From NCBI RefSeq assembly GCF_003018115.1, contig NZ_CP027457.1: a stretch of 64,000 bases of DNA. One strand, 5' to 3'. The notes below the pieces were generated by a model. That model was not told the DNA's origin, searched no databases, and worked only from the letters and a program-made list of their open reading frames with translations. The position numbers and the translations under genes are program-made. This document shows positions 12,168 through 16,095 of the stretch, piece by piece. Source of the stretch: Escherichia coli (GTDB lineage: Bacteria > Pseudomonadota > Gammaproteobacteria > Enterobacterales > Enterobacteriaceae). Each line of letters starts with the position of its first letter. The stretch's first letter is position 1.

Positions 12168-12947
12168 TTAGTAGCTGCTGGCGCTCTTACCGTCACCGTG
12201 GCCCAGCGCTTTCAACAGGCTTGCCAGCAGGCTGGAAGCACCAAAGCGGTAGTGACGCGCATCTGCCCAGTCAGCACCGAACAGTTCATCTGCGATGGCG
12301 AGATATTTCTGCGCATCTTCCGCAGTACGCACGCCGCCCGCTGGTTTGAAACCAACGGTTTTTTCTACGCCCATATCACGGATCACTTCCATCATGATGC
12401 GCGCGCTTTCCGGCGTCGCGTTCACAGCCACTTTACCGGTAGAGGTTTTGATGAAGTCCGCACCCGCTTTGATGGAGATTTCAGACGCTTTACGGATCAG
12501 CGCTTCGTCTTTCAGTTCGCCAGTTTCGATGATCACTTTCAGCAGTACATTCGCTGCCGCGCAAGCCTCTTTACAGGCTTTCACCAGGTCAAAACCAACC
12601 TGCTCGTTACCCGCCATCAGCGCGCGGTACGGGAACACCACGTCAACTTCATCAGCACCGTAGGCGATTGCCGCACGGGTTTCTGCCAGCGCGATTTCGA
12701 TGTCGTCGTTACCGTGTGGGAAGTTGGTTACCGTAGCAATACGGATTTCCGGGGTGCCCTGCTCTTTCAGTGTTTTGCGAGCAATCGGGATAAAGCGAGG
12801 ATAGATACAGATAGCGGCGGTATTGCCGACCGGGGTTTTGGCCTGATGACACAGAGCAATTACTTTCTCGTCGGTGTCGTCGTCATTCAGGGTGGTCAGG
12901 TCCATCAATTTCAGTGCACGCAGGCTGCTTGCTTTCAGATCAGTCAT
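12168..12947 (-). CDS. deoC: deoxyribose-phosphate aldolase DeoC (259 aa)
   Basis: ORF track; start at internal ATG giving [29 protein letters not shown]. Confidence 0.95.
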
Positions 12948-12991
12948 TTCATTCTCCTGGCTTGTCGCCAATAAAATTCACCTTGCGAGTT

Positions 12992-13007
12992 TGTTAGTAT
13001 TCTAACA
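12992..13007 (-). promoter_or_regulatory. DeoR operator O2 at deoP2
   Basis: 16-bp near-palindrome TGTTAGTATTCTAACA (TGTTAGAATACTAACA in deoC orientation), 45 bp upstream of the deoC ATG. Confidence 0.75.
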
Positions 13008-13018
13008 TCTACTCCGCA

Positions 13019-13040
13019 ACACACTTCGATACACATCACA
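13019..13040 (-). promoter_or_regulatory. CRP site 1 of deoP2
   Basis: minus strand reads TGTGATGTGTATCGAAGTGTGT; centre about 40 bp upstream of the expected P2 start, overlapping O2 downstream. Confidence 0.65.
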
Positions 13041-13059
13041 ATTAAGGAAATCTACTTAC

Positions 13060-13105
13060 AAGTTTGCATCACTGTAATGCGATCTGGTTCAAATAATTCA
13101 CTTTC
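13060..13105 (-). promoter_or_regulatory. CRP site 2 / CytR-binding region of deoP2 (approximate)
   Basis: minus strand AAGTGAATTATTTGAACCAGATCGCATTACAGTGATGCA lies ~53 bp upstream of CRP-1, matching the tandem-CRP/CytR layout of deoP2. Confidence 0.45.
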
Positions 13106-13204
13106 AAATGAATGCGTCAGTGGTGGCAAACGCATCAGGATCAAAGTGAACATCACGAAACTTCTTACAATGGCGCATCACCTTCGGCATAAAAGGAAAA
13201 GAAG

Positions 13205-14755
13205 ATGCCCACTTCTCATGAAAATGCACTGCAACAACGTTGCCAGCAAATTGTCACCAGCCCAGTGCTTAGCCCGGAGCAGAAGCGCCATTTTCTGGCA
13301 CTGGAAGCAGAAAACAATCTGCCTTACCCACAGCTTCCTGCCGAAGCCCGCCGCGCGCTGGATGAAGGTGTAATCTGCGATATGTTTGAAGGTCATGCGC
13401 CGTACAAACCGCGCTATGTCTTACCCGATTACGCCCGTTTTCTGGCGAACGGTTCCGAATGGCTGGAGCTGGAAGGCGCGAAAGATCTTGATGACGCACT
13501 CTCTCTGCTGACCATTCTTTACCACCACGTACCGTCGGTCACATCGATGCCGGTCTACCTGGGGCAACTGGATGCGTTGTTGCAACCGTATGTTAGAATT
13601 CTAACACAAGACGAGATCGATGTTCGAATAAAACGTTTCTGGCGTTACCTCGACAGAACCCTGCCAGACGCCTTTATGCACGCCAATATCGGCCCGTCTG
13701 ATTCGCCCATTACCCGCGCGATCTTACGTGCAGACGCAGAGTTGAAGCAGGTTTCACCGAACCTGACCTTTATCTACGATCCTGAAATCACCCCTGATGA
13801 CCTGCTGCTGGAAGTGGCGAAGAACATCTGTGAATGTAGCAAACCGCACATCGCCAACGGTCCGGTGCATGATAAAATTTTCACAAAAGGGGGCTACGGG
13901 ATTGTGAGCTGTTACAACTCACTGCCGCTGGCGGGTGGTGGCAGCACGCTGGTACGCCTTAACCTGAAAGCCATTGCCGAGCGCAGCGAATCGCTGGATG
14001 ACTTCTTTACGCGCACTCTACCGCACTACTGCCAGCAGCAGATCGCCATCATCGATGCGCGGTGTGAATTCCTCTATCAACAATCACACTTCTTTGAGAA
14101 TAGCTTCCTGGTGAAAGAAGGGCTGATTAACCCTGAACGTTTTGTGCCAATGTTTGGCATGTATGGGCTGGCGGAAGCGGTTAACTTGCTGTGTGAGAAA
14201 GAAGGGATTGCCGCGCGCTACGGTAAAGAAGCCGCCGCAAATGAAGTGGGTTATCGCATCAGCGCGCAACTGGCGGAGTTTGTCGCCAATACCCCCGTGA
14301 AATATGGCTGGCAAAAACGCGCCATGTTACACGCACAGTCGGGGATCAGTTCCGATATCGGCACCACGCCGGGCGCGCGTTTGCCGTATGGCGATGAGCC
14401 AGATCCGATCACCCATCTGCAAACTGTCGCCCCGCATCATGCTTATTATTATTCCGGCATCAGCGACATTCTGACGCTCGACGAAACCATCAAACGTAAC
14501 CCGCAGGCACTGGTACAGCTTTGCCTCGGTGCCTTTAAAGCCGGAATGCGTGAATTTACCGCCAATGTCAGCGGTAACGATCTGGTTCGCGTTACCGGTT
14601 ATATGGTGCGTTTGTCGGATTTAGAAAAATATCGCGCCGAAGGTTCACGCACCAACACCACCTGGCTGGGCGAAGAAGCCGCACGCAACACTCGTATTCT
14701 GGAACGCCAGCCGCGCGTGATAAGCCATGAACAGCAGATGCGCTTTAGTCAGTAA
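13205..14755 (+). CDS. yjjI: YjjI, glycyl-radical-enzyme family protein of unknown substrate (516 aa)
   Basis: ORF track 516 aa; C-terminal glycyl radical-type motif RVTGYMVRL; divergent from deoC. Confidence 0.9.
13591..13606 (-). promoter_or_regulatory. DeoR operator O1 at deoP1
   Basis: perfect 16-bp palindrome TGTTAGAATTCTAACA exactly 599 bp upstream of O2. Confidence 0.7.
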
Positions 14756-15590
14756 GATTATCCCCTTCTCCTGCGTTGACGGGCCAGGCAGTCGTCTGGC
14801 TCTGTTTTTGCAGGGCTGCAATCTGCGCTGCAAAAACTGTCACAATCCGTGGACGATGGGGCGTTGTAATCATTGCGGAGAGTGCGTGCCACAGTGTCCG
14901 CATCAGGCGTTGCAGATTGTTGACGGCAAAGTGGTGTGGAACGCTGTGGTTTGCGAGCAGTGTGATACCTGCCTGAAGATGTGTCCGCAACATGCCACAC
15001 CAATGGCGCAATCCATGAGCGTGGACGAAGTGCTTAGCCATGTCCGCAAAGCAGTGCTGTTTATCGAAGGGATAACGGTGAGTGGCGGTGAAGCCACGAC
15101 CCAGCTGCCGTTTGTGGTGGCGCTGTTTACTGCCATCAAAAACGATCCGCAACTGTGCCATCTCACCTGCCTCGTGGACAGTAACGGTATGTTGAGCGAA
15201 ACCGGCTGGGAAAAATTGCTCCCGGTGTGCGACGGCGCAATGCTCGATCTCAAAGCGTGGGGGAGCGAATGTCATCAACAATTAACCGGACGCGATAATC
15301 AGCAGATTAAGCGCAGCATCTGTTTGCTGGCAGAGCGCGGCAAGCTGGCGGAACTGCGTTTGCTGGTGATCCCTGGCCAGGTGGATTATTTGCAACACAT
15401 CGAAGAACTGGCGGCGTTTATCAAGGGAGTCGGCGATGTTCCGGTACGCCTGAACGCGTTTCATGCCCACGGCGTGTATGGCGAGGCGCAAAGCTGGGCG
15501 AGCGCCACGCCGGAAGACGTTGAGCCGTTGGCTGATGCGTTCCGGGAGCGCGGGGTGAGCCGGTTAATATTTCCGGCGCTGTATTTGTGA
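14727..15590 (+). CDS. yjjW: YjjW, glycyl-radical-enzyme activating enzyme (radical SAM, 287 aa)
   Basis: ORF track; CNLRCKNC (CX3CX2C) radical-SAM cluster plus two ferredoxin-like Cys clusters ([24 protein letters not shown]); overlaps yjjI by 29 bp. Confidence 0.9.
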
Positions 15591-16095
15591 CATGCCGGAT
15601 ACGGCCTACGGTTCGGCACAGACTTGTAGGCCTGATAAGACGCGTCAAGCGTCGCATCAGGCATTGTGCGCCAACTGCCGGATGCGGCGTGAACGCCTTA
15701 TCCGGCCTACGGTTCGGCACAGACTTGTAGGCATGATAAGACGCGTCAGCGTCGCATCAGGCATTGTGCGCCAACTGCCGGATGCGGCGTGAACGCCTTA
15801 TCCGGCCTACGGTTCGGCACAGACTTGTAGGCATGATAAGACGCGTCAGCGTCGCATCAGGCATTGTGCGCCAACTGCCGGATGCGGCGTGAACGCCTTA
15901 TCCGGCCTATGGTTCGGCACAGACTTGTAGGCATGATAAGACGCGTCAGTGTCGCATCAGGCATTGTGCGCCAACTGCCGGATGCGGCGTGAACGCCTTA
16001 TCCGGCCTACGGTTCGGCACAGACTTGTAGGCATGATAAGACGCGTCAAGCGTCGCATCAGGCATTATGCGCCGACTGCCGGATGCTGCCTACGA
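15591..16095. repeat. tandem REP/BIME array, five ~100-bp units
   Basis: GGTTCGGCACAGACTTGTAGGC recurs at 15610, 15711, 15811, 15911 and 16011; each unit holds two inverted REP palindromes. Confidence 0.9.

Follow-up and report, generated by a model that had tools for sequence, protein, structure and literature searches.

The yjjI-yjjW locus

We analyzed a 64,000-nucleotide stretch of Escherichia coli DNA (contig NZ_CP027457.1 of assembly GCF_003018115.1), referred to as the window, and focused on the gene pair yjjI and yjjW next to the deo operon. The yjjI coding sequence extends from 13205 to 14755 on the plus strand and encodes a protein of 516 amino acids, assigned by family models to the YjjI-family glycyl-radical enzymes (GREs). 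The yjjW coding sequence (14727 to 15590, plus strand) encodes a radical S-adenosylmethionine (SAM) activase of 287 amino acids. The original prediction had placed the two genes at these positions with a 29-bp overlap, and the open reading frames were found at exactly 13205-14755 and 14727-15590. The overlap (14727 to 14755, plus strand) likely mediates translational coupling, and it includes one of the most conserved third-codon-position windows of yjjI (nt ~1522-1526). The divergent arrangement with the deo operon was also as described: deoC starts at an ATG at 12947 on the minus strand and is separated from yjjI by a 257-bp intergenic region.

The region 12900-15700 was 100% identical to a RefSeq E. 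coli chromosome in which deoC, yjjI, and yjjW are annotated. At least 80% of this region was carried by 5422 of 5426 complete E. coli genomes. RefSeq names the two products "YjjI family glycine radical enzyme" and "YjjW family glycine radical enzyme activase", and the RefSeq label of YjjI in K-12 MG1655 is still "DUF3029 domain-containing protein YjjI". The adjacency of yjjI and yjjW was retained in almost all sampled lineages. The observed pair, its motifs, and its gene arrangement did not arise by chance.

YjjI has the features of a glycyl-radical enzyme

Full-length YjjI scored 732 bits on PF11230 (cut-off 23) and 787 bits on TIGR04040 (cut-off 498). Its homologues were compared in alignments of 24 and 41 sequences. 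The C-terminal sequence RVTGYMVRL, which had been read as a glycyl-radical-type motif, corresponds to residues 462-470 (nt 14588-14614). Its core, R462-V-T-G465-Y466 (14588 to 14602, plus strand; G465 at 14597-14599), aligned to the motifs of anaerobic ribonucleotide reductase (RNR) NrdD and pyruvate formate-lyase (PFL). This reading was borne out by the conservation of R462 and G465 in all 38 aligned homologues that cover the C-terminal region.

The cysteine loop S235-C236-Y237-N238 (13907 to 13918, plus strand) contains the predicted thiyl-radical cysteine, C236 (13910-13912). C236 was the sole invariant cysteine among the 41 homologues (41/41) and aligned to C290 of T4 NrdD, C384 of E. coli NrdD, and C419 of PFL. 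Glu305 (14117 to 14119, plus strand), an invariant acidic residue in 41/41 sequences, is a candidate general base. About 35 further positions were at least 90% conserved in homologues down to 30% overall identity.

The YjjI family is small. A scan of 1.84 billion cluster representatives detected 541 members at E ≤ 1e-3, and about 25 of the matches listed were full-length YjjI proteins with identities down to ~30%. The called gene of the most divergent homologue (33% identity; contig L096, 1264-2805) did not match its recorded protein under translation table 11, suggesting an alternative genetic code or a difference in gene calling in that assembly.

The YjjI sequence alone gave no meaningful match when compared with all PDB chains. 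The family profile matched only GREs among the PDB sequences, and matched them weakly. In this alignment, RVTGY was placed on RITGYLV of NrdD and RVSGYAV of PFL, and S235-C236 on C418-C419 of PFL. An AlphaFold2 model built from the 41-sequence alignment had a pLDDT of 91.1 and a pTM of 0.90, and contained the ten-stranded alpha/beta barrel of the PFL/RNR type. When the model was compared with the PDB using Foldseek, class III RNR (NrdD) ranked first (E = 1.7e-18, TM 0.76), and the remaining GREs all followed at a TM of ~0.7. As modeled, YjjI is a minimal GRE barrel that is marginally nearest to NrdD and approximately equally far from the other GREs (12-17% identity). Conserved polar and charged residues (H, N, Q, D, and E) are located on or beside the barrel strands of the model, together with conserved basic residues (K213, R251, and R392) and aromatic residues (Y67, Y71, Y76, Y231, and Y237).

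The hallmarks of the superfamily that can be read from sequence and fold, namely the barrel, the RVxG[YFW] glycine motif, the finger-loop cysteine, and a nearby radical-SAM activase, were all found in this system. Thus, yjjI and yjjW very probably encode a functional GRE and its activase, as originally predicted; the family scores, the predicted fold, and the cysteine and glycine motifs agree on this point.

We considered whether the pair could be an evolutionary relic or a non-catalytic protein, such as a regulatory or spare-part protein like GrcA. No phenotype was reported in the searched literature, as would be expected of a relic. This explanation is extremely improbable, as yjjI is a core gene of E. 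coli, and the catalytic cysteine and glycine and the ~35 conserved positions are maintained down to 30% identity. The neighboring gene always encodes a dedicated activase, and the expression of the pair is under control. In addition, YjjI has a full barrel, in contrast to the short domain of GrcA.

YjjW is a predicted ferredoxin-domain activase

YjjW scored 398 bits on TIGR04041 (cut-off 250) and also matched Radical_SAM (PF04055), Fer4_12 (PF13353), and Fer4_7. The radical-SAM cluster motif C31-X3-C35-X2-C38 is encoded at 14817 to 14840 (plus strand), as recognized in the translation and by PF04055 and PF13353. It is followed by two ferredoxin-like CX2CX2CX3C motifs, C47-C57 and C76-C86 (14865 to 14984, plus strand), which are predicted to hold auxiliary 4Fe-4S clusters; matches to Fer4_7, Fer4_9, and Fer4 covered residues 44-90. 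The cysteine motifs attributed to YjjW in the original prediction were therefore all located. The best model other than YjjW itself was that of the hydroxyproline dehydratase activase (141 bits), compared with 44-62 bits for NrdG. By sequence, YjjW resembles the two-auxiliary-cluster activases of GRE dehydratases and decarboxylases.

A radical-SAM gene was adjacent to yjjI in essentially every lineage sampled. Shorter YjjW-like activases of 247-250 amino acids, with no matches to ferredoxin-domain Pfam families, were encoded in three distant lineages (L001, 9557-10309; L087, 9621-10364; L105, 2785-3528), indicating that not every family member has the two auxiliary clusters. On contigs L095 and L097, the activase gene lies ahead of yjjI and not behind it.

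The spacer between yjjW and yjjV contains tandem units of ~100 bp at 15594-16089, in 4-5 copies with 93-100% identity. The units include a GC-rich palindromic sequence resembling repetitive extragenic palindromic (REP) elements. The spacer is 513 bp in the window versus 419 bp in K-12, indicating that the repeat copy number differs between strains.

Anaerobic regulation and the yjjI promoter

Published data place yjjIW under anaerobic control. An FNR peak in chromatin immunoprecipitation (ChIP) was assigned to yjjI, together with FNR-dependent anaerobic induction and no known transcriptional start site (PMC3688515). The transcription of yjjI and yjjW co-varied with that of nrf and other FNR-activated genes (PMC2634741), and both genes were induced anaerobically in Yersinia intermedia (PMC3792023).

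A consensus promoter scan of the deoC-yjjI spacer detected no promoter, and the number of FNR-box-like sites across the window was at the chance level. Phylogenetic footprinting led to a tentative model of the yjjI promoter at 13131 to 13171 on the plus strand. It would consist of a GGATCAAA(A)G box at 13138-13146 and, ~21 nt downstream, a conserved TACAAT/TACACT -10 element at 13166-13171. The GGATCAAA(A)G box was invariant in nine enterobacterial genera and the surrounding spacer was poorly conserved. Of the canonical FNR palindrome, this box includes one half-site only (ATCAA). The FNR peak in the published ChIP data maps ~90-100 bp upstream of the yjjI start codon. If the usual version offset of MG1655 applies, the peak falls between this box and the CRP/FNR hybrid site at 13078-13093 described below.

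Co-expression with narG, nir, and nrf raises the alternative that YjjI has a role in the metabolism of nitrate, nitrite, or nitrogen, or under nitrosative stress. A cross-species bicluster joined yjjI to narGHJI with a shared FNR-like motif, and its authors proposed a role in nitrogen metabolism (PMC3228777); gene-set analyses also place yjjI under anaerobic respiration. However, the co-expression is fully explained by common FNR control, and no nitrogen-metabolism gene adjoined yjjIW in any sampled lineage. GREs are not known to act on inorganic nitrogen species. Consequently, we consider a role in nitrogen metabolism very unlikely.

deo regulatory DNA upstream of and within yjjI

The original prediction had yjjI sharing promoter space with deoP1. 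This was incorrect: the spacer contains deoP2, and the deoP1 operator O1 lies inside the yjjI coding sequence. The DeoR operator O2 at deoP2 is located at 12992 to 13007 (TGTTAGTATTCTAACA), has one mismatch to the palindrome, and is conserved across genera. Two CRP-type sites of deoP2 are located at 13025 to 13040 and 13078 to 13093. Both were conserved in a nine-genus alignment, and the second is a CRP/FNR hybrid (xxGAT-N4-TTCAA).

O1 is a perfect palindrome, TGTTAGAATTCTAACA, at 13591 to 13606, covering yjjI codons 129-134; it contains the deoP1 -10 element, TAGAAT, on the minus strand. A third DeoR operator-like site, TGATAAAATTTTCACA, lies inside yjjI at 13870 to 13885, 279 bp past O1. It probably corresponds to OE, as reportedly described by Dandanell et al. 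1987. O1 lies 386 nt and OE 665 nt into yjjI. The distance between O1 and O2 in the window was exactly 599 bp, and a 599-bp spacing of the two deo promoters has been published (PMC3334521).

The operators leave a mark on the coding sequence. O1 was found at yjjI +386 in all of the ~55 genomes with an adjacent deoCABD, including Hafnia and Edwardsiella. It was absent from every yjjI that does not adjoin deo (Proteus, Providencia, Gilliamella, Xenophilus, and the metagenomic lineages). Among the 16-nt third-codon-position windows of yjjI, O1 was the most conserved in a codon alignment of 18 genera (top 0.07%), and it is encoded by the rare codons AGA and CTA. OE was conserved in 16 genera and ranked in the top 1% of synonymous-site windows in the same alignment.

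From its location inside yjjI, deoP1 directs antisense transcription across the first ~390 nt of the gene and across the yjjI promoter. Judging from the positions of the sites, a DeoR loop between O1 or OE and O2 would enclose the yjjI promoter. In enterobacteria, yjjI is probably modulated through DeoR loops or roadblocks, or through antisense transcripts started at deoP1, which may repress the gene or otherwise tie it to deoxynucleoside availability. CRP ChIP-seq in enterotoxigenic E. coli (ETEC) identified one peak in the yjjI/deoC spacer and one inside yjjI (PMC4287617). The sequence at 13528-13543 inside yjjI exactly matched the MEME-predicted CRP site under the intragenic peak (PMC4287617); it is ~55 bp from O1/deoP1.

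Nucleoside and ribose genes recur around yjjIW

We compared the genes flanking yjjIW across about 18 lineages. deoCABD and yjjIW are divergently oriented in Enterobacteriaceae, Hafnia, and Edwardsiella. In Gilliamella (Orbaceae), deoB, deoD, and genes for a nucleoside:H+ symporter, adenosine deaminase, a 5'-nucleotidase-type phosphoesterase, cytidine deaminase, and pyrimidine-nucleoside phosphorylase are arranged in this order and co-directionally with yjjI and yjjW. On the metagenomic contig L005, whose YjjI is 36% identical, the order is nucleoside hydrolase, an ADP-ribosylglycohydrolase-family protein, a ribokinase-like kinase, and DeoD (267 bits, above the cut-off), followed by a sulfatase-like protein, YjjI, YjjW, a major facilitator superfamily (MFS) transporter, and a Bmp-type ABC transporter.

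Similar genes were found on further metagenomic contigs. L091/L092 (37%) encode a short-chain dehydrogenase/reductase (SDR) epimerase, YjjI, and YjjW, with ADP-ribosylglycohydrolase, nucleoside hydrolase, and ABC permeases on the opposite strand. The order on L097 (37%) is adenosine deaminase, a PfkB kinase, YjjW, and YjjI. L090 (38%) has a ribokinase (315 bits, above the cut-off) three genes off, and also encodes a Cof-type phosphatase, an MFS transporter, and a glycerophosphodiesterase.

In total, nucleoside or ribose catabolic genes flanked yjjIW in about five of about 18 lineages, with differing gene orders and orientations. The YjjI proteins of these lineages share only 31-41% mutual identity. 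Five of 18 is unlikely to occur by chance, at ~1e-4 given a background of ~3% per lineage, which is a rough estimate and not a measurement. A genomic-context network published in 2009 had already placed YjjI in a deoxyribonucleoside-degradation module (PMC2672614).

ADP-ribosylglycohydrolase-family genes beside a nucleoside hydrolase gene were observed next to yjjIW on two unrelated contigs (L005, 1187-2206; L091, 7449-7874). The pairing resembles the uncharacterized yegTUV genes of E. coli (transporter, ADP-ribosylglycohydrolase, and PfkB kinase). It may mark an undescribed pathway for a ribosyl compound.

Proposed function of YjjI and YjjW

We propose that yjjIW encodes a highly divergent GRE and its dedicated activase, which are made only in anoxia and most likely catalyze an oxygen-sensitive reaction of a compound derived from a nucleoside or a pentose. 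We hold this proposal as a whole with moderate confidence. The original prediction had suggested a link to anaerobic nucleoside or sugar metabolism. This suggestion is strengthened by the FNR control and the recurrent nucleoside and ribose neighbors. The chances of a nucleoside or pentose link by itself are, in our estimation, evenly balanced, and any one particular reaction is at best an unlikely guess. No substrate of YjjI is assigned in the searched literature of 8 million full texts, in NCBIfam (where the family is a "hypoth_equivalog"), or in the K-12 RefSeq annotation, consistent with the earlier description of the pair as an orphan.

The mechanism would start with activation of the yjjIW promoter by FNR when oxygen is missing, as published. 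yjjI and yjjW would be co-transcribed and translationally coupled through the 29-nt overlap. By homology, the CX3CX2C [4Fe-4S] cluster of YjjW, fed by the two ferredoxin-type clusters, would cleave S-adenosylmethionine, and the resulting 5'-deoxyadenosyl radical would take a hydrogen from Gly465 of YjjI. The model and the profile alignment suggest that the radical is then passed to Cys236 at the tip of the cysteine loop inside the barrel. The Cys236 thiyl radical would abstract a hydrogen from the substrate, and the product radical would take it back.

With a single essential cysteine, YjjI is likelier to perform redox-neutral abstraction and return of hydrogen than chemistry of the PFL or RNR type. 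The reaction would most likely be of the elimination, lyase, or isomerase type, with Glu305 as the candidate base. The recurrent nucleoside phosphorylases and hydrolases, deaminases, ribokinase-type kinases, and nucleoside transporters, together with the polar, basic, and aromatic residues on the active-site strands, point to a ribose-containing small molecule as the putative substrate; nucleosides, pentose phosphates, and modified riboses are examples.

Several observations weigh against this proposal. In about 12 of the ~18 sampled lineages, yjjI and yjjW form a unit of their own that is surrounded by unrelated genes. No nucleoside or ribose neighbors were found at the loci of Proteus, Providencia, Xenophilus, two gamma-proteobacterial metagenome-assembled genomes (MAGs), an archaeal-looking contig, and five more metagenomic lineages; in the two MAGs, yjjIW is flanked by tpiA-secG and rimP-nusA. 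A tblastn search with a panel of nucleoside genes was negative at the Proteus, Providencia, Xenophilus, and MAG loci, and Pfam annotation, which covered the loci apart from L086, showed unrelated neighbors. Proteus (L056-L059, ~9046-9976) keeps radA-serB-ytjB beside yjjIW, with lplA and deoCABD missing at the locus. This indicates that the deo-yjjI adjacency arose by insertion or deletion after the split from Morganellaceae, so that the adjacency in enterobacteria could be a historical accident. The canonical FNR box (TTGAT-N4-ATCAA) was absent from the 257-bp spacer, where the best sites had 2-3 mismatches. The roles assigned to YjjI residues depend on sequence alignment to a predicted model, and the searched literature contained no experiment on the YjjI protein, including glycyl-radical formation.

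These observations suit a different explanation, in which the pair is a genuine GRE and activase whose substrate is unrelated to nucleosides; the deo adjacency would then be inherited synteny and the other clusters a coincidence. Nucleoside genes were missing from the surroundings of yjjIW in two thirds of the sampled lineages, and Proteus retains the locus without deo. The sulfatase-like gene on L005 and the glycerophosphodiesterase and HAD phosphatase genes on L090 hint at other ester substrates. Against this stand the five lineages, only 31-41% identical in YjjI, in which nucleoside or ribose genes lie at most a few genes from yjjIW, in varied order and orientation (estimated p ~1e-4). We regard an unrelated substrate as a real possibility, though a somewhat doubtful one.

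Comparison with known systems

YjjI was compared with class III RNR using an NrdD profile that combined the E. coli protein with six phage sequences; a T4-like sequence was placed first to allow T4 numbering. The invariant columns of this profile include C79, C290, N311, the zinc cysteines C543/C546/C561/C564, and G580. The YjjI family aligned to it by hhalign over 395 columns with a probability of 97.4% (E = 1e-11). In this alignment, C236 corresponds to C290, the thiyl-radical cysteine on the finger loop. The reducing bottom-face cysteine C79 is replaced by Tyr71 (13415 to 13417, plus strand), which is Tyr in 34/36 sequences. The essential asparagine N311 is replaced by G246, a position occupied by G, A, or S in the YjjI family. 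N253 corresponds to N318 in the structural LNL strand. A single-sequence hhalign comparison had equated N253 with the essential N311 of T4; this assignment was overturned by the seven-sequence profile, and the notion of an RNR-like active site in YjjI was dropped once N311 mapped to G246.

The other defining features of class III RNR were also missing. No second conserved cysteine was found in the YjjI homologues (C58 in 27/34; C440 not conserved). The region of the C-terminal four-cysteine zinc site contains the single non-conserved C440, and no ATP cone is present. E. coli YjjI did not match Pfam NRDD (PF13597) or TIGR02487. Compared with the NrdD structures (PDB 9d3x, 8p23, 4u3e, and T4 1h7b), YjjI is ~100-200 residues shorter with 13-17% identity, and whereas the activase of class III RNR is NrdG, that of YjjI is of the ferredoxin-domain type.

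These differences bear on the explanation that YjjI is a stripped-down class III RNR that makes a 2'-deoxy product from a ribonucleotide, a ribonucleoside, or a ribose phosphate, perhaps with formate, feeding DeoC or supplying deoxyribose. Class III RNRs are the closest structures, a few distant homologues match Pfam NRDD weakly or faintly, and yjjI adjoins deoC. An older structure prediction cited in PMC3228777 was also NrdD-like. Nevertheless, the residues at the positions of T4 C79 and N311, the absence of a zinc site, an ATP cone, and a second conserved cysteine, and a YjjW that is not NrdG-like all speak against an RNR. E. coli depends on nrdDG to grow under strict anaerobiosis, and YjjI is therefore no substitute for nrdDG. 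We judge an RNR function highly improbable.

PFL-type enzymes (PflB and TdcE) use the C418-C419 pair for acyl transfer. YjjI instead has S235-C236, with Ser in 38/41 sequences, and is 240 residues shorter than PflB/TdcE. E. coli YjjI did not match Pfam PFL-like or Gly_radical. The GRE eliminases, whose substrates are sugar phosphates and small polar molecules and which comprise PflD and YbiW (acting on 1,5-anhydrohexitol-6-phosphate), the glycerol and propanediol dehydratases, CutC, IslA, and HypD, are proteins of ~800 amino acids of the Pfam PFL-like/Gly_radical families. They have a G-C-x-E loop with the catalytic Glu at Cys+2, whereas YjjI has S-C-Y-N (Asn at Cys+2 in 38/41 sequences) and its invariant Glu is elsewhere (E305). 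Taken together, YjjI shows every superfamily feature that could be checked and lacks the defining features of each characterized subclass.

It is possible, though we put this forward tentatively, that YjjI is the first member of a GRE subclass of its own, marked by a minimal barrel, an S-C-Y-N loop, and Glu305. Under the control of FNR and DeoR, it would then catalyze a hitherto undescribed radical step in the anaerobic breakdown of nucleosides or pentoses. Such a step may be, for example, a beta-elimination, as in the first half of the RNR reaction, on a ribose compound that is refractory to hydrolases and phosphorylases. If so, FNR, in response to oxygen, and the DeoR operators in its own coding sequence, in response to deoxynucleoside, would jointly gate yjjI in enterobacteria.

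GREs catalyze difficult and health-relevant reactions in the gut, on choline, hydroxyproline, isethionate, and anhydro-sugars. To our knowledge, YjjI is the last GRE of E. coli K-12 with no assigned substrate. The substrates of PflD and YbiW have now been assigned as 1,5-anhydrohexitol-6-phosphates (PMC12441222), and a 2025 paper listing the GREs of E. coli omits YjjI. Databases already list the pair, its family models, and its lack of an assigned substrate, and the finding itself is therefore not new; the nucleoside link was proposed from genomic context in 2009 (PMC2672614). The present analysis adds the exclusion of RNR-, PFL-, and GCxE-type chemistry for YjjI, the recurrence of nucleoside and ribose neighbors across deep branches of the family, and the corrected shared regulatory region, in which deoP1, O1, and OE sit inside the yjjI frame and constrain yjjI. 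The family is core in E. coli despite its small size, and it spans bacteria and at least one archaeal-looking contig. The proposed substrate class and the excluded chemistries narrow the annotation gap to a short testable list. yjjIW is thus a real, ordinary-looking, and unsolved enzyme pair, and a well-posed problem that will not surprise a specialist.

The upstream DNA corresponds to the classical deo region with deoP1/deoP2, O1, O2, OE, and the CRP/CytR sites, and the window reproduced its 599-bp O1-O2 and 279-bp O1-OE spacings exactly. The placement of O1, deoP1, and OE antisense inside the yjjI frame, where they constrain synonymous sites, is rarely stated for this region. It represents a clean case of a coding sequence constrained by the regulatory DNA of a neighboring operon.

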